Positions 1 through 50,265 of a DNA stretch of 50,265 nucleotides are shown piece after piece. A model generated the notes under the pieces. That model was not told the DNA's origin and ran no database searches. It saw nothing but the letters and a program-made list of their open reading frames with translations. The position numbers were made by a program, and so were the translations under genes. The DNA comes from a virus (Duplodnaviria; Caudoviricetes): IMG/VR virus record IMGVR_UViG_3300031673_000073, positions 1 to 50,265 of that record; one strand, written 5' to 3'. Position 1 is the first letter of the stretch. Each line of letters begins with the position of its first letter.

Positions 1-254
1 CTGGTGTCTGGTCTGTCATTATGATTCTCCTTTGAGTTCGTGCTTTAGACATTCTCCACCACTTTGTTGACAAATGTTTTCATCAAAGTGAGTACAGGTA
101 AAACAAGTCATGCCCTCTGCCTTCCCTGACACCTCCGTGGTGTCTATGCGGTCTATGATTGCCCTTACCTTTTCGGGCTTCCACGTGAAGATAGTTCCCT
201 CTTCAGTCATAGTGTGCATTAGATTATATAACTCGCTTATTGCCTCTTCCTTGC
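1..254. repeat. Terminal direct repeat, left copy (circular/permuted genome overlap)
   Basis: 1-254 matches 50012-50265 except T127 vs C50138; ORF 19..273 is duplicated as 50030..50265. Confidence 0.95.
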
Positions 255-273
255 TCAACGTCTTGTCCGTCAT
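19..273 (-). CDS. Small accessory protein; MTDKTLSKE start module, C-terminal Cys cluster, ends KGES
   Basis: ORF track; shares its N-terminus with 46411..46680 and the IIDRI motif with other array genes; CFTCTHF...C...C motif. Confidence 0.75.
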   Translation of the reverse strand: MTDKTLSKEEAISELYNLMHTMTEEGTIFTWKPEKVRAIIDRIDTTEVSGKAEGMTCFTCTHFDENICQQSGGECLKHELKGES

Positions 274-276
274 GGC

Positions 277-756
277 TTACACCTCGTATTTACAATCTTT
301 GCAATCTTTCACTACACATACCGATTTACCACTTCCCCATTCCTTCCATACTTTTTTGCATTCCTCGTGATCATACCCAGCTTCACATTCGCCAATATCA
401 AAACCATCACCGCAAGGCATGAGATCGTCCAGGGTACACCCACATTCATAACCCGCCAATCCTGTGTATCCGTGAGCTTTCAGCCAGTCAGAAACTATTT
501 CTTTTACAGTCATGTATTCTCCTTTCCTTTGAGTAGTGGCTTGCTCGTGGTTTTTCTTCCGATCCATTTGCTCTCTCCGTTTATCCAACCATGCCTCTTG
601 TTCATCCTCGGGTATCTCACTACAATCCTTGCTTCCGCAATTATTACAAATAGCAAATTCTCCATCAAATATATTATCACCGGCTTCTTGTACTAACTCG
701 ACACCACTTTCATCTCCATACCATCCACAATCAGGGCATTCATACATCTCGCTCAC
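277..756 (-). CDS. Cys-rich (Zn-ribbon-like) protein; probably a fusion of two small genes with an internal start at 513
   Basis: CPDC...CNNC N-half; internal AAAGGAGAATACATG (RBS+ATG) before MTVKEIV...CGC...PC. Confidence 0.7.
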   Translation of the reverse strand: MSEMYECPDCGWYGDESGVELVQEAGDNIFDGEFAICNNCGSKDCSEIPEDEQEAWLDKRREQMDRKKNHEQATTQRKGEYMTVKEIVSDWLKAHGYTGLAGYECGCTLDDLMPCGDGFDIGECEAGYDHEECKKVWKEWGSGKSVCVVKDCKDCKYEV

Positions 757-1031
757 TTTGCCCCCTTGATTAGTGCGTCTAGTTCTTCGTAAGTTGGTAT
801 GTCTCGTAATGTTTCCTCTTGGTCTTCGGGTGATAATCCGTCATTACATTCAGTCAGCTTCCTTGTCTCCTTCACCGCCTCGACTATCTTGGTGATAAAA
901 AGAGTAGCTTGTTCTACAGAATTGTTCCACAAGTTCCATTGAGCTGTCGTTTTTTTCCACGCATCACGCTTGATAATTAACTTACTCCTAAACTCCAACT
1001 GCTCTTTCAACGCTTCCAGTAGTGGCTTCAT
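753..1031 (-). CDS. Hypothetical protein ending KGAK
   Basis: ORF track; 4-nt stop/start overlaps on both sides. Confidence 0.7.
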   Translation of the reverse strand: MKPLLEALKEQLEFRSKLIIKRDAWKKTTAQWNLWNNSVEQATLFITKIVEAVKETRKLTECNDGLSPEDQEETLRDIPTYEELDALIKGAK

Positions 1032-1321
1032 TTCGCCCCCTTGATTGCGTCTCTCGCTTTAAACATTGCGGCTTGTACGAAGTCAACTTTTCTATGATCC
1101 GGTAATCCTTGCCACATCATTTCACACGCCTTTAAATCCGACATATCTCTTGGAAGTATTTGGTGTTGTAATTTTGTGCGCCCGTAAGCTATCATCACTA
1201 TACTATTACTTGACAACCCACAGTCTCTGTCTTCTCTAAAGGAACAGCATCCAGCTTTGTTAGCGCGTTCTAAAAGAAACGTTATGTCCAGTTTCATTTC
1301 AGCTGCGTTCGGCTCTCTCAT
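1028..1321 (-). CDS. Hypothetical protein ending KGAK
   Basis: ORF track; ATGA overlaps. Confidence 0.7.
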   Translation of the reverse strand: MREPNAAEMKLDITFLLERANKAGCCSFREDRDCGLSSNSIVMIAYGRTKLQHQILPRDMSDLKACEMMWQGLPDHRKVDFVQAAMFKARDAIKGAK

Positions 1322-1641
1322 TTCGCCCCCTTTCCTATTACCGCGATTTCCATATCAAACGCTTGGTGACATTCCGTGCATTTCAATGTCGCCATATATC
1401 TCCCAGTTGGGTCTAAATAATGTTTTGTTGCTGGTCTGCGTCCTATGTGTCCGCATATATGACAATGGCTGATGTCACAAGGCGGTGGTTCTTTTCCGAT
1501 ATTGGGAGTCTGTATTTGCATTTCTATTATTACACCTTCCGCATACTCCGTGGCAGATTGTCTATTACGCTCGGGATAGTCAAGAGGTAATATAATATCA
1601 GTTATCTTTTTAGCCGCTTCCTTTATTGTTTTCCTGTTCAT
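1318..1641 (-). CDS. Zn-finger-like protein ending KGAK
   Basis: CHIC...CTEC; ATGA overlaps. Confidence 0.7.
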   Translation of the reverse strand: MNRKTIKEAAKKITDIILPLDYPERNRQSATEYAEGVIIEMQIQTPNIGKEPPPCDISHCHICGHIGRRPATKHYLDPTGRYMATLKCTECHQAFDMEIAVIGKGAK

Positions 1642-1952
1642 TTCGCCCCCTTGATTATCTGCTTCAACTGATAGATATCTTCCCCGGTCTCGTTTGCCAG
1701 AGATACCAATATAGCCGTGACCGCTAGATCCCCATGCGACTTCGCCGCTTGAGATAATGCCAACCGTACATCCTGCCGCTTCTTCAAAACAGACACAAAG
1801 TTTTTAACCTGCTGTACGTTTACAAGTCCGAACTTTTCCTTTTCCATGTTATCCATCCTTTCACTTTTACCTAGTTCTATCTGTGCTTGAAGTTTAAGCT
1901 TCATAAGAATGCTCTTCCCATTTGCCAATCCCCCAAGAGTAAGTTCCGACAT
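1638..1952 (-). CDS. Hypothetical protein ending KGAK
   Basis: ORF track; coupled to both neighbours. Confidence 0.65.
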   Translation of the reverse strand: MSELTLGGLANGKSILMKLKLQAQIELGKSERMDNMEKEKFGLVNVQQVKNFVSVLKKRQDVRLALSQAAKSHGDLAVTAILVSLANETGEDIYQLKQIIKGAK

Positions 1953-2365: not shown

Positions 2366-2807
2366 TTATCTCCTTGGCTTTATATCGTTCGTAATCTATT
2401 TTATAAAAATAACCCATTAACTTCTTAGAGATCCATATTACGGGTATTACTATTTTTAGCGCAGTACACATATTCCACATTACTCGATCAACACTATTAG
2501 TTTCCTGATCTTCATCTCGAATAAAATTATCATTAACATACACACTAAGTATCCATATCATAATTGTAGATAAAGTTCTATGTACCTCTCCCTCATGTAC
2601 CCGGCGTTCAAGATCTGCCATACGCTTATCAGGATCTTTAAGAGTATAAGAAGGGCCAGTTGTCACACATCCGATGAACATTGTTACCGCGATAATTATA
2701 ACAACCAGCCTCTTCTTATTAATTATTAGCGATAGCCTCCGGGCTTCAGGTACATCCTGAGGTTGAGATCCCACATGTCTTATTATCACGGCGAGGCTAT
2801 CGCTCAT
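2358..2807 (-). CDS. Putative membrane protein (possible lipoprotein)
   Basis: Hydrophobic LVVIIIAVTMFIGC segment plus two further hydrophobic stretches. Confidence 0.5.
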   Translation of the reverse strand: MSDSLAVIIRHVGSQPQDVPEARRLSLIINKKRLVVIIIAVTMFIGCVTTGPSYTLKDPDKRMADLERRVHEGEVHRTLSTIMIWILSVYVNDNFIRDEDQETNSVDRVMWNMCTALKIVIPVIWISKKLMGYFYKIDYERYKAKEINE

Positions 2808-3000
2808 TTATTATCTCTACCTTTATAATTTTATATCCCCTTAATGCCTTGTCGCCTTTGATCCACTTCAGCGCTTCCATCCTGGCCCTGCTCTCGTTGA
2901 TTTCCTCTATATCCGCATCCTTTTCATCATATCCCTTGGGGTATTCCCCGGTAAATGGATTCTTTTCTCCCTTGGATATTATTATCCTGAACTTAGGCAT
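2797..3000 (-). CDS. Hypothetical protein
   Basis: ORF with GGAGG RBS; overlaps its neighbour. Confidence 0.6.
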   Translation of the reverse strand: MPKFRIIISKGEKNPFTGEYPKGYDEKDADIEEINESRARMEALKWIKGDKALRGYKIIKVEIINER

Positions 3001-7857: not shown

Positions 7858-7916
7858 AATATACCATAAACTAGGAGGCGTGTCAAGTCTTTTTTTACTT
7901 TTTTTTACTTTTTTTT
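7858..7916 (-). promoter_or_regulatory. sigma70-type promoter with A-tract UP element
   Basis: TTGACA(7886-7881), 17 nt, TATATT(7863-7858); three phased A7-8 tracts upstream. Confidence 0.9.
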
Positions 7917-15297: not shown

Positions 15298-15389
15298 TGG
15301 CGGGGAGGGCGAGGATTCGAACCTCGCATCCATGCAGTTTCCCATTAGGTAATCTCGCTAGAACTCTAACCATTGAGTGTTACCTCCCC
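15298..15389 (-). ncRNA. tRNA-like RNA (92 nt, CCA end) lacking a canonical anticodon arm
   Basis: GGGGAGG/CCTCCCC-G-CCA acceptor; ACTC-AATGGTTA-GAGT D arm; GCGAGG-TTCGAAT-CCTCGC T arm. Confidence 0.7.
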
Positions 15390-15504: not shown

Positions 15505-15561
15505 AATATACAACGTCAAGAATACAATGTCAAGTCTTTTTTTACTTTTTTTTACTTTTTT
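15505..15561 (-). promoter_or_regulatory. sigma70-type promoter with A-tract UP element
   Basis: TTGACA(15533-15528), 17 nt, TATATT(15510-15505); 34 nt identical to 7881-7914. Confidence 0.9.
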
Positions 15562-37347: not shown

Positions 37348-39548
37348 TCTCCTGCCTCCTCGAGCGCCTGTTGCGGTGTCTTTCCGCTGGCCTCGCTCTT
37401 AGATGATGGGACGATCGTGCATCGGCAATTAGGATGAACCGGAAGCAATCCTTCGGCATCCGCTATTTCATATGGCCCACTGGCAGCTAAAGATATACAC
37501 TGTTCTTCTGCTCCGGTTGTAAGTTGTATATCAAAAAGTAATATGCCTTGAGATTCAAAAGCTGATTTCCTCGCGGAGTTAAACGCCCTAAGTGTTTCAG
37601 TCCTGGCTACTAATGTCGCCCACGCCTCGGCAGATAATGTTCTGGTCGCAGCTGCTCCGTTGCGTATATAATTATATGTAATAGCTTTATCCCATACGCT
37701 TCCGATCCTTTCCGCTATCTTATCTATCCCCTCGCCTGCCTGAATACCATCGCGAATAGCAGAGCGTAGTTTTAGTTTAATATCTTCCTTAAACTTAACA
37801 GTTATGGCCGATGTTCTTATATCAATATTCTCAAAATCCCCCGGAGATGGGCCCCACGCTTTAGGATCTAATCCCGCCTCTATGAGCCCGTTCTTGCCAC
37901 CCCACTCGAAAGACTTTTTAGTTTGAGTTGATAATATATCTTCAAGCCTACCTTCATCAATTATCCTAGCTAGATCTTCTGCCGGGCTCTTTTTAATGTC
38001 TAATGATTTTGGGATATCGGCTCTCCGTATTTCACGGATAGCTAAAGTTTTCCATCTGATAAGTTCACCAAGTACCGCTTCCTTAGTTGCGATAAACCTC
38101 TCGTTATTTTCAAACCAGTTAGCATCCCTATAAGGTTTTGGTGATCCTTTTGATATTTTCATTTTAGTATCATCCACCTTTTCTAATTCGCGTAGACTAG
38201 GATCACGCTCTGGCCCTTCGCCTCGTCTTTCCCGCGCCTTCCCTCTATCTACTTGAACCGGCTTAGTATCGAACTTAATCTGAGGAACCGGGCCTTCAAT
38301 TCCGAGCTTTGCGCGCGCTTCTTCGACACTAATTACTCCTTTTTCAAGTAAAACACCTACAGCTTTCGCCATAATCTCAAATGTTTCGGTCTTGGTTTTA
38401 GCAATATCCGATTGTTCTTTCTCGGATTGAGTATCTATGGGATTCCAGAAAAACTCTACATCATAAATACTAAGCGCTCCTTCTATAAAGAACCTATTGA
38501 TCCTCGCTGATACTCGCGTCTGTTTTGGCTCAACGGTCTCTTTTTTATAAGTCTTATCCTGTTGTTCGCCACTACCTGCTCCAATATTTCCTGTTTCGAT
38601 GATAGATACTTTAGATGGCGGGACACCGTAAACGGCTAATATCTCATCTCGGTCGAAACTACGCAACTCGAGGAAGCCTGCCTCTTTCGGATTCGCCTGG
38701 TTACTTTGAAATTTCGTCTTCCCCTCGAGTATCATAAACTTATGGGAGTTTCCGGATCCCTTATGTTCCTGATCTATATACTCTCTATTACGGCGAACAA
38801 CATCACTTGGAGCGCCCTCCATGTCTATTATCCCGCCAGGTGATGCATCGTTTTTAAAGAATCCAAGATTATAATTTTGGGCGTGTATATCTGTAGCAAT
38901 AGGCATCTCGAGAGACTGCAAAGGAGATATTCCTTTCGTAGATGATCCCTTTGTCGATAACGGGAAATATATAACTTCCCACGGTTCGAATTCGATCTTT
39001 TTTCCGCCCTTGGTTTTTTGGACAAATTTCTCGATCTTGCCATTCTTGTCAGTTTTAGGTTCGGTCGTTACCGGATCAAGTGTATACATAGCGACCACCG
39101 GATCCGTTCTCTCTCCCGCGCCGCTCCTTACCAATTCCCAAAAGCCTCTGCCAAAGATCTCGTTATCCTCGAAGATATTAACAAATAGTTCGATGCCATC
39201 ATCCTGGTTATTTGGACGATGTAATATCGCTTTAACTATTTCGCAGTTCTGAATAGCGCCTTTTGATTTCTCGTATCCCTTTTTCGGGCGTACTCCCCAG
39301 CCTCGGCCCGTGGCGGTTCTGGTTATTGAATTAACGCAAGCGCGAACCCATGAAACCCTTAGATATATGTCCCAAAGAGTCGAGGGTGGTAATATATTAT
39401 TTGAGAACTGGATGCCCGCCCCCTCGATCTCACCTCTTGGCCCATTAGTATCTCTATTGCGCCCGCGCGCGGCATCACGGGCGGCAATAGAAATTGCCGC
39501 ATCCTGTTTTGGGGCGAACATATTAGATATTTTTTTAATTATGTTCAT
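37344..39548 (-). CDS. Portal protein fused to a MuF/SPP1 gp7-like head morphogenesis domain
   Basis: GISPL, FFKNDASPGG, ILAVYGVPP, EEARAKLG portal motifs; ARTE...PVHPNCRC C-terminus. Confidence 0.92.
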   Translation of the reverse strand: MNIIKKISNMFAPKQDAAISIAARDAARGRNRDTNGPRGEIEGAGIQFSNNILPPSTLWDIYLRVSWVRACVNSITRTATGRGWGVRPKKGYEKSKGAIQNCEIVKAILHRPNNQDDGIELFVNIFEDNEIFGRGFWELVRSGAGERTDPVVAMYTLDPVTTEPKTDKNGKIEKFVQKTKGGKKIEFEPWEVIYFPLSTKGSSTKGISPLQSLEMPIATDIHAQNYNLGFFKNDASPGGIIDMEGAPSDVVRRNREYIDQEHKGSGNSHKFMILEGKTKFQSNQANPKEAGFLELRSFDRDEILAVYGVPPSKVSIIETGNIGAGSGEQQDKTYKKETVEPKQTRVSARINRFFIEGALSIYDVEFFWNPIDTQSEKEQSDIAKTKTETFEIMAKAVGVLLEKGVISVEEARAKLGIEGPVPQIKFDTKPVQVDRGKARERRGEGPERDPSLRELEKVDDTKMKISKGSPKPYRDANWFENNERFIATKEAVLGELIRWKTLAIREIRRADIPKSLDIKKSPAEDLARIIDEGRLEDILSTQTKKSFEWGGKNGLIEAGLDPKAWGPSPGDFENIDIRTSAITVKFKEDIKLKLRSAIRDGIQAGEGIDKIAERIGSVWDKAITYNYIRNGAAATRTLSAEAWATLVARTETLRAFNSARKSAFESQGILLFDIQLTTGAEEQCISLAASGPYEIADAEGLLPVHPNCRCTIVPSSKSEASGKTPQQALEEAGE

Positions 39549-39554
39549 AACTTC

Positions 39555-40850
39555 CTATCCAGCAAAGCTAACGGCTGGTTCAACGTATTCGCCTTCTTCG
39601 TCTCCGATGGCCGTTGCCATTACACAGTCATCGTGATATCCGCTCGGGGCCCCGTACTTCACATTCCCTCTGCTTGATGTCATATATTCATACAATTCCA
39701 GTTCGGCTACTAACTCCGGCCAGTCCGGATATAATATTTCTCCATTCTCGACCGCCATTGCCAGCTTTTCTATCATCCTATTCTTGTTTCCACCATCTCG
39801 ACCGCCTGCTACAAACACTCCTTCCACAAATACTCTCGGTAAATCCCGCCGCAAGTTATCTATCAGAGCATCACCTATCGAGTTCTGCTCCGCTTTTACC
39901 TTTGATGGTCTCCAGTTGGTTATCATATTCTTGAGACGATCGAGTTGAATATTGTAATCGACCTTGCTGATCCGGTCATAGGCAACTATCATCCTCGGAG
40001 TTTCTGTTACATCGATAACAACAAAGACCGAAAAGTCTCGGCGCTTCCCCCAATCAACGCTGATTATATAAGTCCGCCCAGGCATCGGATGTTTAAGCGG
40101 CAAGAAGTTTCGTATATTATCCCGGACGTTCCTAAAAACACCTCCTGCATCCGCTATAAACTCCGCCAGTATCTCCTGCCGATAAACCATCTCGTTCATT
40201 CCTGATGTAAGTTCCTCGATAGCTTGAGGTGATAGGGTAGTATTTGCGTGTGTCGGGAATCTCCATGATGCCCACGTCGGATATTGTGGATCTTGCCCTC
40301 GCGTCCAATGCCTGAAGAAAAAGTTCCTACCCTTCGGTGTCGTTAGCCCGACCAGTTTTCCTTCTTTATCTGCCAGCGCCGGCCAGATCGCAGATTCGAA
40401 CGCTGATTCTTTCCACATCGCCATCTCGTCGCAAACGACAAAGTCAAGTCCCTCGCTCCGGAGGTAATCTTCGTTATCCGCTGATCGGCATTCGAGTTCG
40501 CTCCCGTTTTTTAACTTAATATACATATCCGTCTTCGAAAAATCTTCGATGGCCCATTGCGGAACCAGAGGAACTATCTTTTTCCATCCTACCCGGGATA
40601 TTTTATATATCGGGGCGACCCACCAGTTAATACTTCCAGGTTTCATTACCGCCGCCTTATACATTTCCGGGGCCGCGCTCTCGCCCTTGCCTAACCTACG
40701 GCCTCCGCAAACCAGACGAAATCTTGCCTGGCTATCGTGGAAGCCCGGGCCGTCCTTCAAAAATGATCCCGACCGATTATCGTATCCCGATGATCGTGTC
40801 CACTCTAACGGCTTATAAGGTATTACTGTCTTTACTGCTTCGGCTTGCAC
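39555..40850 (-). CDS. terL: Terminase large subunit
   Basis: GGRRLGKG Walker A, VVCDE Walker B, TTPKG, QEILAEF, VDWG, HDDCVMA. Confidence 0.95.
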   Translation of the reverse strand: MQAEAVKTVIPYKPLEWTRSSGYDNRSGSFLKDGPGFHDSQARFRLVCGGRRLGKGESAAPEMYKAAVMKPGSINWWVAPIYKISRVGWKKIVPLVPQWAIEDFSKTDMYIKLKNGSELECRSADNEDYLRSEGLDFVVCDEMAMWKESAFESAIWPALADKEGKLVGLTTPKGRNFFFRHWTRGQDPQYPTWASWRFPTHANTTLSPQAIEELTSGMNEMVYRQEILAEFIADAGGVFRNVRDNIRNFLPLKHPMPGRTYIISVDWGKRRDFSVFVVIDVTETPRMIVAYDRISKVDYNIQLDRLKNMITNWRPSKVKAEQNSIGDALIDNLRRDLPRVFVEGVFVAGGRDGGNKNRMIEKLAMAVENGEILYPDWPELVAELELYEYMTSSRGNVKYGAPSGYHDDCVMATAIGDEEGEYVEPAVSFAG

Positions 40851-41322: not shown

Positions 41323-41482
41323 CTCATCCCTCCTGTTATCGCAACTAAAAAAGCGCCCACGGCTACCACCGTAAACAGTACTCCGATGACCACGCCAGCG
41401 ATAACACCTCGGCGCTCACCGTCGCGCCCGGCACGCCCGCAGGCCTTCAGCATCTCCGGCCCGGTATATTTCTTGGCTACCA

Positions 41483-41758
41483 TTATGATTTCCTCCCCGG
41501 CGCTATCTTATCGCTCCGCTTAAACTGCTCATCGGTGAGCTTGACCGCGCTGGCTACCGCGTTCCATCCTGACCCGCACTCTTCAGACCCGAGCATCGCT
41601 ACCCCCTCGCCCAACTCCACCGCTTGCCTCACGCCCGCCGCCAAAGTCATCCCCTTCGCCATACACGCCTTCATTATCTCATAACAATTCTGGCAGATCG
41701 CTCCCGCTTCACTTGCACCGCATAGCTTACAATCCGGCATCACAAAATCATCGCTCAT
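41483..41758 (-). CDS. Cys-rich hypothetical protein
   Basis: CKLC...CQNC; GGAGG RBS; ATGA overlap. Confidence 0.6.
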   Translation of the reverse strand: MSDDFVMPDCKLCGASEAGAICQNCYEIMKACMAKGMTLAAGVRQAVELGEGVAMLGSEECGSGWNAVASAVKLTDEQFKRSDKIAPGRKS

Positions 41759-42872: not shown

Positions 42873-43253
42873 TTAGTTGCTTAACTCGCCCCTGGTGTCT
42901 ATGTTACACGCTCGGCTAATGATATCGTTCATCCCTGGTATCAACTTTGCCAGCCCCTTGGCTCCATCCATCCCTCGTGTAAACGATATACCCTTCAATG
43001 CTCCGCGCGCTGTTTGTATCTGTGCTGTTATTATTATCTTATGCTCAACGTATGGCGTACACCGGCAGTTAATCTTTTCTGTCTTTGGAAACCCGGCAAG
43101 ATCACCTGGCCCTATCATCTCCCATCTTCTGTACTCCTCCAACTCCCTCCGCGCCCTGGCTATCTCTGATATCGACAAATCATCCTTGCTGATATCCCCT
43201 GCCTCCAGCGCAAGCCCTACCTCTACCCACTTTGTTTTATCGCTCGGCTTCAT
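42873..43253 (-). CDS. Hypothetical protein containing an INCRC motif
   Basis: ATGA overlap with terS; motif resembles the MuF C-terminal Cys motif. Confidence 0.55.
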   Translation of the reverse strand: MKPSDKTKWVEVGLALEAGDISKDDLSISEIARARRELEEYRRWEMIGPGDLAGFPKTEKINCRCTPYVEHKIIITAQIQTARGALKGISFTRGMDGAKGLAKLIPGMNDIISRACNIDTRGELSN

Positions 43254-44125
43254 AACTCCCCCGGCTTTAACTCTACCGTCGTCGTCCTACCACCTGATAA
43301 TCTCCGCCCCCCGCGCGCGCGTATGCGTCCGCTACCCGCTTCTACCTTATCACCACCATCCGTGTCTTTAACATCCCCCCGAGCAATCGCTATTGGATCG
43401 CCTTTTCGCCCCTCGCCACTACCTAACACCCCCTGCGATTCTGCCGTATTATCAAGAAACGCCGGGCGCGTATATCTCGGGGTTCTACCTTCTGCTATCG
43501 CTTCCGCTATATCCCCAGGTAATGCGTCATCATCTAGCCCCGTGATCGCCGGCCTACTGCTATAACTATCCTCTGATAAATCTATACCCCTTATCGGTAT
43601 CGCTCCCCTTGGTTCTGAATCAGGCGTCGGCGCCTCCCATGCCATCAACATCATCTCCGTCCGCTGTGTCGCCTCGCCCCTTAACAACGCCAGCGCCTCC
43701 AGTATCACCGTCTTAGCCTTCAATAATCCCTCAAGGCTCTTCGGCTTCACTTGATGCTTGATTTTATCGATCAAATTAAGATCTTCTTCCAAACTTTGGA
43801 TCTTGCGAATTTTCCAGTCTGCCACGCCGGGTGCTAGCTTAGCCCCGACAAGGCTTGCGGTTTCGGATTCAAGATCAAGCCATCCGTCTTTGCTTCTCCA
43901 GTTTAGAATAGTGTTTCTTGATTTATTAAATTTTGCGGCGAGCTTTGTTGACGACGTACATAGTCCCGAAATAAAAAGAAGCGCTGCTTCAATGCGCATC
44001 TCCGAATTCTTCCCTACTATCCGTCTTCTCAGTAACGTTCTTTGTGCCTCTGAAGCACCAACTATTTCTTTAGCACTTGGCGGTTCAATTAACTTTCCGC
44101 TTGGCGTATACTGCTTTTTGTCCAT
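43250..44125 (-). CDS. terS: Terminase small subunit (HTH)
   Basis: STKLAAKFNKSRNTILNWRSKDGW HTH followed by a coiled coil; first gene after a terminator, upstream of terL. Confidence 0.75.
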   Translation of the reverse strand: MDKKQYTPSGKLIEPPSAKEIVGASEAQRTLLRRRIVGKNSEMRIEAALLFISGLCTSSTKLAAKFNKSRNTILNWRSKDGWLDLESETASLVGAKLAPGVADWKIRKIQSLEEDLNLIDKIKHQVKPKSLEGLLKAKTVILEALALLRGEATQRTEMMLMAWEAPTPDSEPRGAIPIRGIDLSEDSYSSRPAITGLDDDALPGDIAEAIAEGRTPRYTRPAFLDNTAESQGVLGSGEGRKGDPIAIARGDVKDTDGGDKVEAGSGRIRARGGRRLSGGRTTTVELKPGEL

Positions 44126-44234
44126 CGTTCCTCCTGGTTGCTATAATGTATAGTATCAATGGTCTGTTGTAAAGCATTAATTTCGTTTTATTTTACTTAT
44201 TTTACATTGCCTATTTCTCCTTATTTTTGCATAT

Positions 44235-44263
44235 AAAAAGGCCCGTAGCTTTCACTACAGGCC
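44235..44263 (-). terminator. Intrinsic terminator ending the accessory-gene transcript
   Basis: GGCCTGTAG-TGAAAG-CTACGGGCC-TTTTT on the minus strand. Confidence 0.85.
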
Positions 44264-44340
44264 CTTTGTTCTTATCTGGTGTTATCTTACTGTGTCTTAT
44301 AGCTTTCTCTCTCTCGGATTCCTCTTCGCTTCCCTGCTAC

Positions 44341-44505
44341 CTAGCTTATAGCACGCTCTATCTTTTGTGCTAGCTCGTTCATGTTACCGGATAGCTTCAC
44401 GCCTTCCTGTACTACTCCTTCCGTATTCCCGGCTTTAATGTTTATCTGCATTGTCACCGTCCGCTCTTCCATCACCTTTAGTAACGCTATCATGTCCTCG
44501 TGCAT
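44341..44505 (-). CDS. Small hypothetical protein, 54 aa, not in the ORF track (MHEDMIALLK...)
   Basis: GGGAG RBS before ATG 44505; open to TAG 44341. Confidence 0.55.
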   Translation of the reverse strand: MHEDMIALLKVMEERTVTMQINIKAGNTEGVVQEGVKLSGNMNELAQKIERAIS

Positions 44506-44671
44506 TAACTACTCCCTGATGTTTAACGCTTACCTAATAACCACCTGATGCATCCCGCCGCCCACTTACACGCTGTAACGATATGGTCTATCGTCTTGTC
44601 CCACTCCTGCATTAGAAGATCCTGTAGCTCGCGTACTGCTTCACGGATATATTACCTCTTTGGGTTCTAGA

Positions 44672-45187
44672 TCAATTGGCTCGTCGCTGGGCCCGTCCAC
44701 CGGATCCCCTCCCGCGCTTGTTCTTGCTTACGCTGACATAATTAGCTACAGCCCGCAATGCCTTCCACGCCTCCGCATCATCCTCCCTGATATGGTAGAC
44801 GTTGTCCCATATGGTTACGGCTCGTGTCTTCGTCTCTTCCCTTGGTTCCTCTGGCATGTTATCGCCTCCTTTTTCTTCCTCGGTTTTATCCTTAGTCATA
44901 TCTACTAGATCCCCGCTCGTAGGTATCTCGCCTATAGGGATATATTCGTTACTATATTCCTCGGCGCCTTGCATAAACGTATCACGGCATCTTCTTATCC
45001 GTAGAGTATTTATCGCCTCGCAGATCCGGCCGATACTCTCCTGGTATATATCCGCTATAGTATCCATCGAGTTCCCGTGCTTAAAGGGCCCCGTCTCGGC
45101 CTCGCGCATTTGCTCGGCGGTTCTTCTCGCGTCATCTCTACAACTAACTAATCCCGTTACTAATTCTCTTAATGGGCTATCGTTCAT
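44672..45187 (-). CDS. Hypothetical protein
   Basis: ORF track; internal AGGAGG-ATG (MPEEP) suggests a fusion. Confidence 0.55.
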   Translation of the reverse strand: MNDSPLRELVTGLVSCRDDARRTAEQMREAETGPFKHGNSMDTIADIYQESIGRICEAINTLRIRRCRDTFMQGAEEYSNEYIPIGEIPTSGDLVDMTKDKTEEEKGGDNMPEEPREETKTRAVTIWDNVYHIREDDAEAWKALRAVANYVSVSKNKRGRGSGGRAQRRAN

Positions 45188-45668
45188 TACTCATCCTCCT
45201 CGCTAGATCTATTGCTCGCTCAAGAGCGTCACCACATTTTAACCATTCTATAGCGGCGTTACGTTTACCGACCTTCTTAATCATTAAACAGTCCTCTATC
45301 TTATCTGCTGGAACCAACCATCTGCACTCTGCCGGTCTATCTTTAAGCTCTAGCTCGCAACCTTCATCGGTTAGGAAGGTACACTCGCCTCCCCATCCTG
45401 CGTAACGTAGTTTATCTATAAATCCCTTTATCGCTGGCCTTAAGAAGTATGCTATCTGTCCAGGTTCTAGCTTTCCATCTGTCGGATCGCCTTCCCACCA
45501 ATCTACAATCCACCTGCCAGTAATCAGTTTATTAGCTATAGTTCGTGGATGTGCTCCGTAGTCCTGGGGTAATGCTACTCCTGGATTACGCTTACAACAG
45601 ATACCGCCACACGCCGTACATAGTTCCCGATCTTCTACTCCAAGCTTCAAATCAATTTCGCTATTCAT
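45177..45668 (-). CDS. YkgJ/CxxCxxCC-type cysteine-cluster protein
   Basis: CTACGGICC, CTFL...GC.L....RP.EC. Confidence 0.85.
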   Translation of the reverse strand: MNSEIDLKLGVEDRELCTACGGICCKRNPGVALPQDYGAHPRTIANKLITGRWIVDWWEGDPTDGKLEPGQIAYFLRPAIKGFIDKLRYAGWGGECTFLTDEGCELELKDRPAECRWLVPADKIEDCLMIKKVGKRNAAIEWLKCGDALERAIDLARRMSNER

Positions 45669-45688
45669 TACCCCTCCTTTGTCGTCCC

Positions 45689-46015
45689 TTACTTTTTTAT
45701 GGCTTCCTTAAATGCAGTTACGATTAACATATCTACCGCGCGTAATACCTCGGGCCCGTTGATACATAGTATATGAGCTAAAGTATCATCTTCATCTCCT
45801 TGGCCTCCTGATTTTTCACAGGTCATGCTCACTGCTCCCGTTGACAATATCTCTATTTCAAACTTCATGCCGGCATGTAAAAGCCCCCTTGCCATGTTTT
45901 CTACTTCGGCGGATCTGTCTATCACGATCTCCATCGTTTTTCCATCAGGTAATAGATATTGAGTGAATGGGATCGATCTTAATGTACTATCTTTGAATCC
46001 GTGTATTTCATCCAT
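45689..46015 (-). CDS. Hypothetical protein
   Basis: ORF track; IPFTQYLLPDG. Confidence 0.65.
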   Translation of the reverse strand: MDEIHGFKDSTLRSIPFTQYLLPDGKTMEIVIDRSAEVENMARGLLHAGMKFEIEILSTGAVSMTCEKSGGQGDEDDTLAHILCINGPEVLRAVDMLIVTAFKEAIKK

Positions 46016-46017
46016 TA

Positions 46018-46329
46018 CTACCTTCCTTCCTTGAGTGCTTTGAGGACATGATTGATACCTTCTTTAAATCGTCCATCTTTCCTCTTGACCTCAATTAATC
46101 CAGTTCCATCACAAAATATACACCCATCAGCTACACCATAACCACATTTATGCTTCACGGTTTTATAATCCCTTAAACGCTCCACCTTCTTGATTATCTC
46201 GGAGTTGTCGGGTTCTCCCGTGCGGGTGTTCCAAAACTTAATTGCGCCTTCGCCATCTTCCCCCCAATATTTCCAATCGGTATTCATGCCACATATTTTA
46301 CATGACACTTTGTTATTGCCGTCCATCAT
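46018..46329 (-). CDS. Lar-like (restriction alleviation) Zn protein fused to the PDNSEIIKKV module; 5' end appears decayed
   Basis: VSCKICG...AIKFWNTR; the frame continues upstream as EKLKPCNCG without an ATG. Confidence 0.6.
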   Translation of the reverse strand: MMDGNNKVSCKICGMNTDWKYWGEDGEGAIKFWNTRTGEPDNSEIIKKVERLRDYKTVKHKCGYGVADGCIFCDGTGLIEVKRKDGRFKEGINHVLKALKEGR

Positions 46330-46410
46330 ATCTATGGTTAAATCATCTCTGCTAGCTCCACAATTACACGGCTTTAGCTTCTCTATCTGAGATCTTATGA
46401 AATTTCTCGA

Positions 46411-46680
46411 TCACTCTTTTTCTCCTTCGAGTATTTTCCGGATATCCTTCTCGAAATCTCTGTGTTCGGATTCCTTCAATCGTCCGATGAGTCTTACATC
46501 TGTTGCTATTCGCCCCATCACCTTCTTGATTATCTCGCCGTTATCGGGCTGTGTGCGGTCTATGATACCACCTAGCTTATCCCTCATCTCCTGCCACACC
46601 TCCCTTGCGTGTTCGTTCTCCGGCTCGCTTCCGTATATCAGGTCTAGTGCATCTTCCTTGCTCAATGTCTTGTCTGTCAT
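46411..46680 (-). CDS. Mosaic accessory protein (MTDKTLSKEDALD...PDNGEIIKKV plus unique tail)
   Basis: First ~54 aa nearly identical to 47833..48105. Confidence 0.75.
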   Translation of the reverse strand: MTDKTLSKEDALDLIYGSEPENEHAREVWQEMRDKLGGIIDRTQPDNGEIIKKVMGRIATDVRLIGRLKESEHRDFEKDIRKILEGEKE

Positions 46681-46685
46681 GGCTT
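46519..46685. repeat. Dispersed repeat copy A (copy B at 47947-48110)
   Basis: Manual alignment: 9 mismatches plus one 3-nt indel over ~165 nt. Confidence 0.9.
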
Positions 46686-46892
46686 ACTCTCCTTTTCCTT
46701 TTCAATAGTGTTTTTCAATGCTTCTTTAGCTGCCTTAAAATAATAGTCATAATGACTTTCCAAATCGTCCACGTGTCGTTGTTCGGAGAAGCTATATTTT
46801 TTTCCATTCACTCTAACCTCAAAAAACAATTCTTTCAAGCTATCCCCATAGAAAGATGGTCTAATTTCAAACAAAAAATATTCAATCTTCAT
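46677..46892 (-). CDS. Hypothetical protein ending KESKP
   Basis: AAGGAGG RBS; ATGA overlap. Confidence 0.65.
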   Translation of the reverse strand: MKIEYFLFEIRPSFYGDSLKELFFEVRVNGKKYSFSEQRHVDDLESHYDYYFKAAKEALKNTIEKEKESKP

Positions 46893-46917
46893 CACTCCAC
46901 CTCCTTTGTTTTAGCTG

Positions 46918-47310
46918 TCATGGCTTCTCCTTTGGTGGTGTTATGCCCGAACTTTGATACATGACCGCTAACCGCCCAGACATCCAGCCTTCCCAACCGT
47001 ATTTCTTTGCCTTCTCTAAAAGCTCGAATGTATCTTTAATATCACGGTCGCAAGACTCAAAACCTCGCAACCAAACTTCTGCTTCTCTCTTTGCCTGTTC
47101 AATGGTTTCGGTATAACCCCAAGAAGGACACCCAACATGACCATCGTTATAACGTATCTGCCACATCCACTTAACTGCTTTTTTCTTCTCGTCCACTGTA
47201 TTAAATTGTTCTTCGAGTACGGCACATAAATTACGAACTGGCCCATACTCCCACGGATAAGCGTTTTTGTGCCTTGGCTTTTTCCATTTAAGCTTCTCTA
47301 TCTCTGGCAT
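46918..47310 (-). CDS. Hypothetical protein (MPEIEKL start, ends KEKP)
   Basis: Flanked by connector sequences. Confidence 0.7.
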   Translation of the reverse strand: MPEIEKLKWKKPRHKNAYPWEYGPVRNLCAVLEEQFNTVDEKKKAVKWMWQIRYNDGHVGCPSWGYTETIEQAKREAEVWLRGFESCDRDIKDTFELLEKAKKYGWEGWMSGRLAVMYQSSGITPPKEKP

Positions 47311-47615
47311 TATGATTCTCCTTTCTTGTTTCTCTTATCGCACTCTGCTTGTGCTTGTTTCTTGGTTGGGAACATATCATCCTTCGGCAATGAAGTCCCA
47401 TGACTTGCTCGATATTCTGTCCAATGTTGTGCGTTTGTATTTTTCTCTTTACGCCAATTAGCAGAAATCCCACATATTATAAAAGAATCGTCTATCTCCC
47501 ATACCAATTTATCTACTTTCAATTCGATACCACATGAATCACATTTTTTATATTTAACAGACTCACGTATCAACCATACCTTATCCCCTATATCAAACTT
47601 GGTCTTGATGTTCAT
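47310..47615 (-). CDS. Hypothetical protein (MNIKTKFDIGDKVW, ends KGES)
   Basis: Start revised to the ATG of the AAAGGAGAATCATAATG connector. Confidence 0.75.
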   Translation of the reverse strand: MNIKTKFDIGDKVWLIRESVKYKKCDSCGIELKVDKLVWEIDDSFIICGISANWRKEKNTNAQHWTEYRASHGTSLPKDDMFPTKKQAQAECDKRNKKGES

Positions 47616-47833
47616 TATGATTCTCCTTTGGTTATCCAATTCCACGCTTTTATTGCTTGAGATTTACCTTTGTGGGTAATGTTGGGATATGCAAACCCTA
47701 TTCTTCCGCAGAGTTTACAATATGCCCACGACCATTTCTTCCCGTCATCTGTTGTAAATACATATTCATTGGTACTACATTTCGGGCAACAAAAAGGATT
47801 ATGTTTCGCAAAGCACGTTGGACACGTTTCCAT
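47615..47833 (-). CDS. Lar-like Zn-finger protein (ends KGES)
   Basis: CPKC...CKLCG...AIKAWN; start revised to the connector ATG. Confidence 0.65.
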   Translation of the reverse strand: METCPTCFAKHNPFCCPKCSTNEYVFTTDDGKKWSWAYCKLCGRIGFAYPNITHKGKSQAIKAWNWITKGES

Positions 47834-48246
47834 TATGATTCTCCTTTGAGGATTGAGAGGATTTTGTTCGCCTTTGCGTCCATTAGTACAACGTACTTTG
47901 CGTCTGTGAACTTCATGTTTTTTATCAAGTCGCACAACTCCGACTCCACCTTCTTGATTATCTCGGAGTTGTCGGGCTGTATGTGGTCTATGATACCACC
48001 TAGCTTATTCCTCATCTCCTGCCATGCCTCCCTTGCGTGTTCGTTCTCTGGCTCGCTTCCGTATATCAGGTCTAGTGCATCTTCCTTGCTCAACTTGTCT
48101 GTCATGGCTTCTCCTGTGTTAGTGCGGTCTAGATTGCCTTTTGCTAGTTCTCTAAACTTTACTAACGCTTTCTCCATATCTTCAGGAGTTAGTTTTATGC
48201 CTAGCTCTTCGAGTTTCTTTCTTATCTCTTCTTGTTTGTCTGTCAT
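47833..48246 (-). CDS. In-frame fusion of two MTDK-start modules (internal start 48105), ends KGES
   Basis: Internal GGAGAAGCCATGACAGACAAG connector read as GEAMTDK. Confidence 0.75.
   Translation of the reverse strand: MTDKQEEIRKKLEELGIKLTPEDMEKALVKFRELAKGNLDRTNTGEAMTDKLSKEDALDLIYGSEPENEHAREAWQEMRNKLGGIIDHIQPDNSEIIKKVESELCDLIKNMKFTDAKYVVLMDAKANKILSILKGES
47947..48110. repeat. Dispersed repeat copy B
   Basis: See copy A; 47944-47976 is also identical (33 nt) to 46180-46212. Confidence 0.9.
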
Positions 48247-48602
48247 GGCTTCTCCTTTGGATTTTCTTGTGCCACTCCCGTTACGCCAAGTGCCTCACCG
48301 AGTTTAGTTAAGGCAATACCCCATTCATCAGATGATGGTCTTCCTTTGTCGGTGACGTTAATATCTCGGTCGTGCAGATAATAAAGTTCCCGTGATGCTT
48401 TTTCTATCTCGCTGTTGTCGGGCTGTATGCGGTCTATGATACGCTGAAAATCCTTCACTACCATGCTTGATAAATCATCCTTTGGGTGTGTGACGAAGCA
48501 GGCGGGGTCTTGGTAATACGCCCGTATTTCGCTCGCTAACTGTTTTGCGCTCCTGTCGTTGTCGTACTTTGTTTGTTCTTCCTTCGTTAGCTTCTCCGGC
48601 AT
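48243..48602 (-). CDS. Mosaic accessory protein (MPEKL start, IIDRIQPDNSEI module, ends KEKP)
   Basis: Flanked by connectors; shared internal module. Confidence 0.75.
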   Translation of the reverse strand: MPEKLTKEEQTKYDNDRSAKQLASEIRAYYQDPACFVTHPKDDLSSMVVKDFQRIIDRIQPDNSEIEKASRELYYLHDRDINVTDKGRPSSDEWGIALTKLGEALGVTGVAQENPKEKP

Positions 48603-48853
48603 TATGATTCTCCTTTAGTTAGTTCTCGTATCATTAACAGTCTGATAATAGCGTGGTCGATGCTAGGTCGTCCGCTGTCTGGGTCTATATGTCCTCCTAT
48701 TGAGTTCCATCTATCGAAATGCCCGTGAAACTTTGTGTAATGAACACTCAAGTCTTTCTCCCGCCACCCATTGTCGCCGTGCTTGCCCTTACCTTCTTGT
48801 ATGAGTAGGTCGTCTAGTCCTTGAAGGTTAAAGAACTTTGTTAGTAGTTTCAT
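48602..48853 (-). CDS. DUF5664-like dATP/dGTP diphosphohydrolase domain protein (ends KGES)
   Basis: G..KHG..GW......Y......H...W......DPDSG...I.HA; start revised to MKLLTK (ATGA overlap). Confidence 0.65.
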   Translation of the reverse strand: MKLLTKFFNLQGLDDLLIQEGKGKHGDNGWREKDLSVHYTKFHGHFDRWNSIGGHIDPDSGRPSIDHAIIRLLMIRELTKGES

Positions 48854-49992
48854 GTTAAACCTCCTAACCTTTTGAACGCTTCCCTCGCACACTGCGGAAC
48901 CACGCTGTTGCCAAGGCATTTAAGGCGGTCGTTTCTAAAGGGTAGCCCATTAACCACTCTACCCACGTTGGGTTCAGTTGGCCAGTAATCCCCTCCATCG
49001 CGTTCACCTTGTCCGGCAAGCTGTTGTTCTCGTTCCTCCCTGCCGCTTCTAGAGTTTCTTGATTTCTGCCGCCTTTGTAATCCCTTGCCGCCGGGGTTGG
49101 ATATGTCTGTTTGTGTATCACTTCTGGTAGCCCTTGTTGATTGCTGTTCGGTCCGCGGCGTTTGTAATCCTGTTTCGTTGGTGTCGGCCACATCTGTGTT
49201 TTCCCTTCCACCAATTCCGCCAGCCCCCTTCCGTATCCTACCGTTGTCCTTCCCGGCTCTTGGCTTCTTGGTGTTGGCCACATCTGCACCGCTTGACTTA
49301 GATTTACACTGTGCATTGACCCTTCTTTCTGCTGGCTCGACTTCAGTTTGTCTGTGAAGGTGTCTGCTGTTGTTGGTGTCGGCCATGTCTTTGGTGTTTT
49401 GACTTGCGCACTTAAACTCCCCGCACACTTGTCCGTCCTGTTGCCCATTCTTTTCACGAAGTTGTCCGTGTTTTCTCCTGTTTCCGTTGCTCTTGGAGTG
49501 AGCCAGCAACCACCACCTTTCTCGTCTGTGCGGCGCTCCCATGTCGAAAGCTGATAGCAAGCCCCATCTACAATCATACCGTAACTCGGCCAACACTCCG
49601 GTAACTTCAGCAAGTCCTCGAAAAGTGATAGCTGGCACATTTTCCAAGAAGATGAACTCTGGTCGTAGTTCGCTAGACAACCTAACGATTTCGCCAAATA
49701 GTCCACTTCGCTTTCCCGCCAAGCCCGCTCCACTTCCCGCAATACTAATGTCTTGACAGGGGAAGCCACCGCTGATGATGTCGATTTCTGGGAGGTCTTT
49801 TCCTTTGAGTGTGGTAACGTCATCCCAGATAGGGGCGTTGTCAATCTCACCTCTTGACATTCTTGAAAGTAAGACGGCTTGAGCGTATCGCTCGTTTTCA
49901 CAATAGGCGACTGTGCCGACCCATGGCGAAAGGGCTTCGCTGATTCCTCCAATTCCGCTAAATAAATCCAAACCATTTAACTTCTCCTTCAT
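48850..49992 (-). CDS. C5 cytosine DNA methyltransferase, alpha frame (motifs I-VIII and X)
   Basis: DLFSGIGG, DV, GGFPCQD, ENV, HRRER, RLKCLGNSVVP. Confidence 0.93.
   Translation of the reverse strand: MKEKLNGLDLFSGIGGISEALSPWVGTVAYCENERYAQAVLLSRMSRGEIDNAPIWDDVTTLKGKDLPEIDIISGGFPCQDISIAGSGAGLAGKRSGLFGEIVRLSSELRPEFIFLENVPAITFRGLAEVTGVLAELRYDCRWGLLSAFDMGAPHRRERWWLLAHSKSNGNRRKHGQLREKNGQQDGQVCGEFKCASQNTKDMADTNNSRHLHRQTEVEPAERRVNAQCKSKSSGADVANTKKPRAGKDNGRIRKGAGGIGGRENTDVADTNETGLQTPRTEQQSTRATRSDTQTDISNPGGKGLQRRQKSRNSRSGREEREQQLAGQGERDGGDYWPTEPNVGRVVNGLPFRNDRLKCLGNSVVPQCAREAFKRLGGLT
48864..49976 (-). CDS. Nested +1-frame ORF; beta-like methyltransferase subunit with WPTP repeats and motif IX
   Basis: 370 open codons; AAGGAG 7 nt upstream of the ATG; five (W/Y)(P/L)TP repeats; LNPTWVEWLMGYP. 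Confidence 0.8.
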   Translation of the reverse strand: MVWIYLAELEESAKPFRHGSAQSPIVKTSDTLKPSYFQECQEVRLTTPLSGMTLPHSKEKTSQKSTSSAVASPVKTLVLREVERAWRESEVDYLAKSLGCLANYDQSSSSWKMCQLSLFEDLLKLPECWPSYGMIVDGACYQLSTWERRTDEKGGGCWLTPRATETGENTDNFVKRMGNRTDKCAGSLSAQVKTPKTWPTPTTADTFTDKLKSSQQKEGSMHSVNLSQAVQMWPTPRSQEPGRTTVGYGRGLAELVEGKTQMWPTPTKQDYKRRGPNSNQQGLPEVIHKQTYPTPAARDYKGGRNQETLEAAGRNENNSLPDKVNAMEGITGQLNPTWVEWLMGYPLETTALNALATAWFRSVRGKRSKG

Positions 49993-50011
49993 TTAATAAC
50001 CTGCCGTTCCT

Positions 50012-50265
50012 CTGGTGTCTGGTCTGTCATTATGATTCTCCTTTGAGTTCGTGCTTTAGACATTCTCCACCACTTTGTTGACAAATGTTTTCATCAAAGT
50101 GAGTACAGGTAAAACAAGTCATGCCCTCTGCCTTCCCCGACACCTCCGTGGTGTCTATGCGGTCTATGATTGCCCTTACCTTTTCGGGCTTCCACGTGAA
50201 GATAGTTCCCTCTTCAGTCATAGTGTGCATTAGATTATATAACTCGCTTATTGCCTCTTCCTTGC
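50012..50265. repeat. Terminal direct repeat, right copy
   Basis: 253/254 identical to 1-254. Confidence 0.95.

Follow-up and report, generated by a model that had tools for sequence, protein, structure and literature searches.

Exactly repeated stop-start junctions between mostly unrelated small genes in an accessory-gene array of a soil tailed phage

The small-gene array and its repeated junctions

The IMG/VR virus record IMGVR_UViG_3300031673_000073 (Duplodnaviria; Caudoviricetes), analyzed here over its whole length of 50,265 nt (hereafter the window; completeness rating 100%), carries nearly all its genes on the minus strand, including an array of 18 genes and two mini-open reading frames (mini-ORFs) in which the same short sequences repeatedly end one gene and start the next. 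The first 254 nt of the window (1-254) are the same as the last 254 nt (50012-50265) except for one T/C mismatch at 127, and the unique genome length after removal of this end overlap is about 50,011 nt. The array lies entirely on the minus strand; it begins with gene 3000..2797, crosses the end overlap and finishes with gene 46680..46411, after which there is a gap of 81 nt. All its junction distances fall between -11 and +5 nt, and the array, as judged from this spacing, is therefore almost certainly one polycistronic, translationally coupled unit. In the order of transcription it consists of a 137-aa HAD-like gene, four genes ending in KGAK, a 156-aa zinc-finger-rich gene, an 84-aa gene (MTDKT…KGES), a mini-ORF encoding MTDQTPEERQVIK, a C5 DNA methyltransferase gene, an 83-aa gene (…KGES), a 119-aa gene (MPEKL…KEKP), a 137-aa gene (MTDKQ…KGES), a 72-aa and a 101-aa gene (both …KGES), a 130-aa gene (MPEIEKL…KEKP), a mini-ORF encoding MTAKTKEVE, a 72-aa gene (…SKP) and an 89-aa gene (MTDKT…). 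The features are listed in Table 1.

The repeated junctions, here called connectors, are exactly repeated sequences of 13-20 letters and are named after the C-terminal residues that they encode. The KGES connector is the 17-mer AAAGGAGAATCATAATG, of which the window holds six exact matches, all on the minus strand, where 0.05 is expected from shuffled sequences and none of 100 shuffles reaches six. Because of the end repeat, the matches at 17 and 50028 are one site, which leaves five distinct KGES junctions, packed into 2.7 kb. Every copy is read AAA GGA GAA TCA TAA, with the next ATG overlapping the stop codon, and the 45 nt on each side show no similarity between copies. Two further junction families lie nearby, GGAGAAGCCATGA (KEKP) and AAGGGGGCGAAATGA (KGAK block). 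The KEKP sequence GGAGAAGCCATGAC occurs exactly at three sites, with two more matches at 2 mismatches (509 and 43886), neither of which is a junction, while the shorter AAGCCATGAC is additionally present at 46676-46685 and 269-278; GGGGCGAAATGA of the KGAK block is found at 1028, 1318 and 1638, with a variant at 753. The five KGES, three KEKP and four KGAK junctions all fit one anatomy, that of a stop-restart module, in which an AAGGAG Shine-Dalgarno (SD) sequence lies in the last codons of the upstream gene and is followed by a fixed spacer of 5-7 nt and a stop codon overlapping the next ATG (TAATG or ATGA). At the KEKP copy of 48101, a module of 46 aa meets a paralogue of gene 46680..46411. 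Genome-wide, ATCATAATG is confined to the five KGES junctions and a diverged sixth junction at 41481, outside the array (seven matches vs. 0.75 expected). A fourth and weaker junction family, AGGAGGGGATGA, precedes small genes in another block (7424, 7611 and 7820, minus strand).

An earlier sequence-only reading of the window had described most of this: the 17-mer at its sites, the KEKP connector at three sites with variants near 46677 and 270, connectors that supply C-terminal codons, SD, stop and next start, the copy at 48101 read in frame inside the fused gene 48246..47833, and a tightly coupled, one-strand array continuing through the end overlap to about 1.95 kb. All of these descriptions were borne out by the motif searches and by reading the junctions. 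The same reading saw the cargo as counter-defence genes, and here only one part held. The methyltransferase is a clear member of PF00145 (134.6 bits), whereas the 83-aa protein matches PF18909 (dGTP_diPhyd_N) at the cut-off (27.6 vs. 27), and the Lar_restr_allev matches of the 72-aa and 103-aa proteins fall under it (17.9 and 17.3 vs. 28.6; TIGR03655, 16.4 vs. 39.6). The remaining array proteins have no match in Pfam, PHROGs or NCBIfam, and the 119-aa and 101-aa proteins match only themselves among 5.8 billion proteins. A counter-defence array is thus a guess for all but the methyltransferase.

Neither promoters nor terminators are enriched in the array, as nine promoter-like sites were found vs. 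10.8 +/- 2.8 expected from shuffles and six terminator-like sites vs. 6.0 expected. Seven junction windows (67-71 nt) that were folded have no shared structure, with z-scores from -0.89 to 2.20 at the five KGES copies and of -2.03 and 0.47 at two KEKP copies, and only one of the five inverted-repeat pairs in 46300-50265 flanks a connector. The GC content of the cassettes ranges from 33% to 51%, which is within about 2 standard deviations of 300-nt windows and therefore gives no clear sign of foreign origin.

Table 1. Connectors, array genes and selected other genes in the window (positions of the window; stop codons of ORFs not written out)
Feature	Position	Strand	Remarks
KGES connector, copy 5 (= 17-33)	50028..50044	-	ends gene 273..19 (…ELKGES), then mini-ORF MTDQ…
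KGES connector	48600..48616	-	83-aa gene end / 119-aa gene start (MPEKL…)
KGES connector	47831..47847	-	137-aa fusion gene end / 72-aa Lar-like gene start
KGES connector	47613..47629	-	72-aa gene end / 101-aa gene start
KGES connector	47308..47324	-	101-aa gene end / 130-aa gene start (MPEIEKL…)
KEKP connector, ATGA overlap	48242..48255	-	119-aa gene end / 137-aa gene start (MTDKQ…)
KEKP connector, read in another frame (…TGEAMTDK…)	48101..48114	-	inside gene 48246..47833
KEKP connector	46917..46930	-	130-aa gene end / start of 9-codon mini-ORF MTAKTKEVE
AAGCCATGAC variant (…ESKP/MTDKT…)	46676..46685	-	72-aa gene end / 89-aa gene start
AAGCCATGAC variant	269..278	-	upstream TAA in another frame, 3 nt before ATG of gene 273..19 (MTDKT…)
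KGAK connector AAGGGGGCGAAATGA, ATGA overlap	1028..1042	-	
KGAK connector AAGGGGGCGAAATGA, exact copy	1318..1332	-	
KGAK connector AAGGGGGCGAAATGA, exact copy	1638..1652	-	
KGAK variant	753..772	-	90% over 20 nt; next start 5 nt downstream
Diverged sixth junction with ATCATAATG	41481..41489	-	outside array, between 91-aa and 54-aa genes
Four consecutive unrelated genes, all ending KGAK	753..1952	-	104, 107, 97 and 92 aa
84-aa gene	19..273	-	MTDKTLSKE 5' module (40 nt at 92.5%), KGES end
13-codon mini-ORF MTDQTPEERQVIK	49989..50030	-	bridges connector 5 to methyltransferase start (ATGA overlap)
C5 DNA methyltransferase, two overlapping frames	48850..49992	-	alpha 380 aa; beta-like 370 aa at 48864..49976
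83-aa gene	48602..48853	-	weak dGTP_diPhyd_N (formerly DUF5664) match, KGES end
119-aa ORFan (MPEKL…PKEKP)	48243..48602	-	IIDRIQPDNSEI patch
137-aa mosaic gene	47833..48246	-	four parts
72-aa zinc-ribbon gene	47615..47833	-	Lar-like below cut-off
101-aa ORFan	47310..47615	-	
130-aa gene	46918..47310	-	
9-codon mini-ORF MTAKTKEVE	46892..46921	-	holds SD for next gene (TGATG overlap)
72-aa AT-rich ORFan	46677..46895	-	33% GC
89-aa MTDK-family gene	46411..46680	-	last of coupled chain
Large terminase (TerL)	39555-40850		PHROGs
Portal	37344-39548		PHROGs
TerS-like DNA-binding protein	43250-44125		
PD-(D/E)XK exonuclease	12699-14036		

Origin of the repeated junctions

Ordinary bias in ribosome-binding sites and codons, convergent optimization of each junction or an assembly artefact might produce such repeats, and junctions with an SD in the C-terminal codons and a TAATG or ATGA overlap are indeed common in this phage and in its relative G001, as are single copies of AAAGGAGAATCATAATG in many unrelated viral contigs. 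Overlaps of 1 or 4 nt occur at 26 of the 88 junctions of the ORF list. A position matrix built from the other junctions (80 in number, among which the fifth KGES copy was included, indexed 2 nt off) nevertheless gives the 17-mer a probability of 3.1e-7 per junction and 2.6e-5 expected copies among 84 junctions vs. the five observed, by which the sequence-only reading's own alternative, bias alone, is excluded. Apart from the KGAK pair, no other pair of junctions exceeds 15/17 identity, and ten other junctions with a 1-nt overlap all differ in sequence. The copies are also clustered, with five KGES copies within 7 of 84 junction steps (P = 7.5e-5) and the three exact KGAK copies consecutive (P = 8.6e-4). 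Among 243 other phage or metagenome loci (2.79 Mb), three have an SD-containing 14-mer that ends in a start codon and has at least three dispersed copies, and none has at least five; all three lie in longer paralogous or tandem repeats (paralogous gene ends with similar flanks in L169 and L282, a 165-nt tandem array in L270), so that the same pattern with unrelated flanks is found in 0/243 loci. As to an artefact, Logan contigs were available from three soil runs of three studies, X1 (possibly the source), X2 and X3; one contig of the source run covers 46900-47973 with three copies and no differences, and X2 and X3 carry parts of the region at 100% identity. Bias and artefact are thereby largely refuted and seem very improbable, and the repeated junctions are real and unusual.

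The search with TerL in viral, metagenome and genome contigs found one relative at 68% identity, present in IMG/VR and JGI (L116 and L196 are the same phage), the next-best matches being at 41%, and at 36% in genomes. This relative, G001, has 49,997 nt and a GC content of 57% vs. 43% in the window phage. Twenty-seven of the 83 window genes are matched in G001 and the structural genes are syntenic, but in the array region (24 genes, from the gene at 4070 to TerS) only 1/24 is matched, the methyltransferase gene, which lies at a different position. G001, a distant relative, contains neither AAAGGAGAATCATAATG, with up to 3 mismatches allowed, nor k-mer families of its own at the junctions, while its small-gene junctions are of the same style, with K/G/E-rich ends containing an SD and TAATG or ATGA overlaps, but with varied sequences. 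The junction style is thus ordinary for this phage group, and the exact repetition is not. A blastn search of INPHARED with 44000-50265 returned only short methyltransferase pieces, in six records.

Comparison of the array with itself revealed remnants of a gene family. Gene 46680..46411 is duplicated over 167 nt (93%) in the second half of gene 48246..47833, and the duplicate starts exactly at AAGCCATGAC; gene 48246..47833 is a mosaic in which a unique part of 46 aa is followed by the in-frame connector, the copy of gene 46680..46411 and a unique tail ending in KGES. A 5' module of 40 nt (92.5%, MTDKTLSKE) is also common to gene 273..19, and the longest extension of a connector (20 nt, 100%) is shared by 273..19 and 48246..47833, both of which have MTDK starts and KGES ends. 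After ten modules of the KGES, KEKP or xKP type, the next start is MTD or MTA in 6/10, MPE in 2/10 and another sequence in 2/10, and the two mini-ORFs (13 and 9 codons) begin with MTD and MTA; that at 49989..50030 may be read as the 5' remnant of an MTD-type gene. Smaller patches are shared as well, one of 38 nt (92%, IIDRIQPDNSEI) by three otherwise unrelated genes and one of 33 nt (100%) by 47976-47944 and 46212-46180, the latter in the Lar-like gene. Breakpoints of the mosaic fall inside genes too, and the earlier proposal that any swap stays coupled is therefore not supported.

Homologues elsewhere of two cassettes permit a comparison of their ends. All four homologues of the 130-aa protein (67, 61, 54 and 46% identity, among 1.84 billion representatives) start at its residue ~4-8 and have neither the MPEIE start nor the KEKP end; no loci of this protein were found in viral contigs, with a single query or an alignment, or in genome contigs. 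The methyltransferase starts with MKEKL-NGLDLF in the window and with MNGLDLF in G001, where its junctions are different ones, and a 12-nt insert at the start in the window puts an AAGGAG 7 nt upstream of the ATG at which the second frame starts. The two cassettes thus lack connectors elsewhere, and the "plug-and-play" of the sequence-only reading is not supported. Homology that ends short of the local junction codons fits, on the sequences compared, with modules that belong to the resident array.

Based on these results, we propose that the connectors are stop-restart coupling modules identical by descent, the KGES and KEKP modules being the ends of an amplified MTDK…KGES family whose gene bodies were replaced, a reading to which we give a probability of about 0.45. 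The region itself is a hyperplastic, hypervariable accessory-gene block of a tailed phage of about 50 kb without an integrase. In the proposed mechanism, the overlap of the stop codon with the next ATG could let the terminating ribosome restart at once. The identity of the copies is not needed for this coupling, because ten other 1-nt overlaps and the junctions of G001 use varied sequences; the exactness of the copies would instead reflect descent from a family of small genes (MTDK… …KGES) that was amplified locally and whose two ends, 5' and 3', were conserved. The bodies of the genes may later have been replaced or patched via short-homology or illegitimate recombination, with the ends surviving as slot boundaries, and the repeated boundaries would in turn supply 15-21 nt of homology for unequal exchange, by which cassettes could be lost, gained or fused. 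The fused gene 48246..47833 with its in-frame connector supports this reading of the modules as family ends, and it is plausible that the repeats were used as crossover points.

Several points weigh against this reading. Coupling by the connectors is deduced from their anatomy, and for the KGAK block, which has no shared N-termini and no internal patches, an origin by amplification and body replacement would be pure inference. Two KGES copies precede genes that start exactly at the ATG without any remnant, a result that random illegitimate joins would rarely give. The five KGES copies have zero differences over 85 nt vs. the 7% divergence of the duplicated gene segment, a hint of selection on every base, which favors a sequence-specific function. 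The sequence-only reading had also counted on a single-strand annealing protein and an exonuclease; a PD-(D/E)XK exonuclease is present, but the Pfam models of RecT, ERF, Sak and Rad52 have no match in the genome, and the Atlas look-alikes of the 329-aa neighbor of the exonuclease give no more than a faint indication of clusters of the Sak or Rad52 type (scores under the bar, at 0.86-0.87). No relative near enough to show replacement events turned up in viral, metagenome or genome contigs, the nearest being the one at 68% TerL identity.

That hint of selection is what would be expected if AAAGGAGAATCATAATG and, separately, the KGAK module were binding sites of a factor, from phage or host, that sets the translation of this block or its timing, or were DNA operators like the stoperators of L5, which we regard as improbable but worth weighing. 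All 17 positions are invariant in five copies, including a 7-nt spacer that the SD does not need, and the confinement of ATCATAATG to six junctions, the single orientation of the copies and their restriction to non-structural genes would all suit a binding site. A precedent exists in the start-associated sequences (SAS) of mycobacteriophages, which have conserved positions without 16S rRNA pairing and sometimes contain the upstream stop codon (PMC3203893). The copies are, however, all confined to 2.7 kb of a single operon and not distributed over the early region, the modules are of three different kinds in adjacent blocks, no candidate binding protein was identified and no conserved structure surrounds the copies; the only relative, though distant, is without the site.

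It is likewise unlikely, in our estimate, that the connectors are adaptors actively used for recombination, where cassettes would be swapped, excised as circles and re-inserted within the phage population as a translational counterpart of the shuffling known from T4-type phages. Each connector would be a lineage-specific "socket" of 15-21 nt of homology with SD, stop and start, a possible but doubtful counterpart, at the level of translation, of the promoter and stem-loop units (PeSLs) of those phages and of attC sites. Recombination of the phage or the host would release circles of one gene and insert them again, or swap cassettes, with no dedicated recombinase, each rearrangement would yield an expressed and coupled gene, and block-wise duplication of modules would be the footprint of single-crossover insertion. 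Such insertion at a junction would duplicate the junction, matching the block-wise pattern, exact direct repeats of 15-21 nt do bound unrelated genes in a hyperplastic region, and PeSLs provide a precedent that includes mini-circles (PMC2839356, PMC4122927). The soil runs add some leads. A Logan contig of X2 joins 46414 to 46896, and the nine letters at the joint read as the connector core AGGAGAATC in reverse complement; this joint, an unverified lead (depth 4.07, shorter side 24 letters), would remove genes 46895..46677 and 46680..46411 exactly. One low-depth contig each in X2 and X3 matches 48080-48257 with six differences, and the X3 record departs from the window beyond 48080, directly behind the shared MTDKLSKE module, with 136 letters of different sequence, both leads only, as is a joint 47359->50024 in X1 (side 20, four letters left out at 47321). 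The joints of X1 and X2 are both below the reliability bar. Joints with a side under 30 at likeness below 95 often stem from repeats or other organisms. Six other joints, all in the methyltransferase gene and of high depth, were rejected as coming from other organisms. X2 holds 51% and X3 34% of the sampled words, and parts not covered in these runs are uninformative.

Against the use of connectors as adaptors, they do not travel with cassettes, being absent from 4/4 homologues of the 130-aa protein and from the methyltransferase gene of G001, a phage without connector copies and without junction families. At least 109 stretches in IMG/VR match AAAGGAGAATCATAATG, but among the 80 matches listed each has a single copy, so the virome search suggested by the sequence-only reading gave no other contig with two or more copies among the matches listed, and two extended connector patterns had 0 matches in viral contigs and 0 in metagenome contigs. 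Seventeen nucleotides are also short for homologous exchange, and the four annealing-protein models had no match.

Comparison with known repeat systems

In the literature that was searched, exact stop-start modules between unrelated phage genes are not described beyond the SAS. The SAS of Cluster K mycobacteriophages are copies of the 13-mer GGGATAGGAGCCC, 11-19 over half a genome, that are conserved across the whole phage cluster, and an extended inverted repeat of 17 bp accompanies about half of them (Pope et al., 2011, PMC3203893). SAS and connectors are both short, asymmetric and exact repeats with an AGGAG core a few nt before start codons, in one orientation and in non-structural genes only, both precede genes of different families, both may include the upstream stop codon and both are conserved beyond what rRNA pairing needs. 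The connectors differ in that three 13-17-mers with 3-5 copies each lie in adjacent blocks, always include stop and start, have another sequence than GGGATAGGAGCCC and no inverted repeats upstream, and are absent from the only relative, which is distant. By their sequence and lack of inverted repeats, the connectors are an analogue of the SAS and not a member.

The PeSLs of T4-type phages are intergenic units of a sigma-70 promoter and a stem-loop terminator (Arbiol et al., 2010, PMC2839356; Comeau et al., 2014, PMC4122927). PeSLs resemble the connectors as repeated motifs in hyperplastic regions directly upstream of ORFans, they end in an SD and a start codon, and they are exchange points between unrelated sequences, which is shown for PeSLs and proposed for the connectors. 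In contrast to these units, the connectors leave no intergenic space (1- or 4-nt overlaps), show no excess of promoters or terminators and no stem-loop, and form a unit that would be translational and is much shorter. By this comparison, the SAS of Cluster K and the PeSLs of T4-type phages appear to be the closest known systems, and the connectors differ from both.

Integrons, to which the sequence-only reading likened the array, have the tyrosine recombinase IntI beside the cassettes, and each cassette boundary carries an attC site, an imperfect inverted repeat with a hairpin fold. The array resembles them in having cassettes that lack promoters and all point the same way, boundaries that recur and cargo of diverse kinds. 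It has, however, no tyrosine or serine recombinase, as PF00589 had 0 matches in the whole genome (controls positive in 14/14 genomes) and PF00239 likewise 0, in agreement with the claim of the sequence-only reading that the array is integrase-free; there are also no structured, attC-type hairpins at the connectors, the boundaries are coding and the cassettes have no site of their own. A site-specific, integron-like system is thus not supported. Short conserved sequences at gene boundaries, or linkers, have been proposed for lambdoid phages as crossover points that give mosaic genomes in modular evolution. Linkers are conserved between different phages, whereas the connectors are repeats within one genome that no second genome shares. 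Relaxed homologous recombination by phage recombinases has been described (PMC3945230, PMC2327257).

Accessory regions of phages turn over very fast, yet new genes need immediate expression, and fixed translational slot boundaries would permit the exchange of gene bodies while the operon stays coupled. The connectors extend start-associated repeats to an unrelated soil phage, and the 17-nt sequence, as a putative natural coupling element, is compact and lends itself to reporter tests. Should crossovers take place at the boundaries as well, these would provide a recombinase-free route to the shuffling of cassettes.

The two-frame methyltransferase and other features of the genome

The methyltransferase gene at 48850-49992 (minus strand) contains two full-length overlapping ORFs, frame A (380 aa) and frame B (370 aa). 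Frame B belongs to no Pfam family; at least 800 homologues of it are in the databases, and more than 571 viral contigs contain relatives. It was found as frame A shifted by +1 nt in 75/75 viral loci that hold both (from the loci L348-L427, L276 and L278). Mismatch rates by codon position in 680 locus pairs from 46 loci reveal selection on frame A as far as motif VIII, on frame B from ~20 codons past motif VIII to ~10 codons before motif X, and then again on frame A. The parts under frame A comprise motifs I-VIII and motif X, and that under frame B comprises WPTP repeats and LNPxWVEWLMGYP. Frame A is stop-free through the B-coded middle in 48/51 loci vs. an expected fraction of 0.035, and no stop interrupts frame B over the 80 codons leading up to motif VIII in 46/49 loci vs. 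0.275, counts for which 32/83 sequences were dropped where the motif pattern failed. A programmed frameshift as a general explanation was rejected because a -1 slippery heptamer is found at the B-to-A switch in only 9/81 loci. GenBank entries MW202733.1 and OQ984150.1 annotate frame A only, and a profile of frame B matched 0 chains in PDB.

The methyltransferase gene has the two-frame architecture described for M.EcoHK31I, where a different frame within the alpha gene codes for the beta chain (PMC2836561). It differs from that description in that the beta frame appears to encode the variable middle. In methyltransferases of the M.EcoHK31I type both chains are needed for activity, and beta supplies motif IX, which LNPxWVEWLMGYP presumably resembles. 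In G001 (L356, 93-1487 and 1497-2405), the two-frame gene lies directly behind a canonical 464-aa C5 methyltransferase gene and before a RusA-like gene, and its 5' end is nearly identical in DNA to that of the window gene despite the 14-point difference in GC content. A second DNA methyltransferase of the window (phrog_12517/phrog_498) adjoins a phrog_2045 protein just upstream of the array (5074-5982 and 4442-5074, minus strand).

The 254-nt overlap of the window may be a true terminal repeat, or two assembly variants, rather than simple circular closure; G001 has direct terminal repeats of 144 nt. The genome also encodes a glucosaminidase-type lysin. An ARAGORN scan of the genome found no tRNA, and an Rfam scan of the window found no family at the gathering score. 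A tRNA-like element lies at 15302-15389 (minus strand), downstream of a strong promoter. Its acceptor stem terminates with GCCA, its T arm contains GGTTCGAATCC, a D arm is present too, and the anticodon region spans 34 nt; the element has a cloverleaf-like fold (z = -3.1) and no ARAGORN match, and reaches 29.3 bits (E = 3e-4) with the tRNA-Sec model of Rfam, under the gathering score of 47. Two intergenic regions, ~7858-7915 and 15505-15560 (minus strand), have about 34 nt in common, which comprise a pair of A-tract units (A8GT), then GACTTGACA and a -10 box (TATATT), and look like duplicated strong modules of a sigma-70-type promoter. In contigs with distantly related TerL (L125, L165, L228, L243, L222, L255, L268 and L124), the 15-mer GCCGCTATCCTGCGG has 3-4 closely spaced copies near the terminase region, and L032 carries seven irregularly spaced copies of GTTCACTGTTGACGC.

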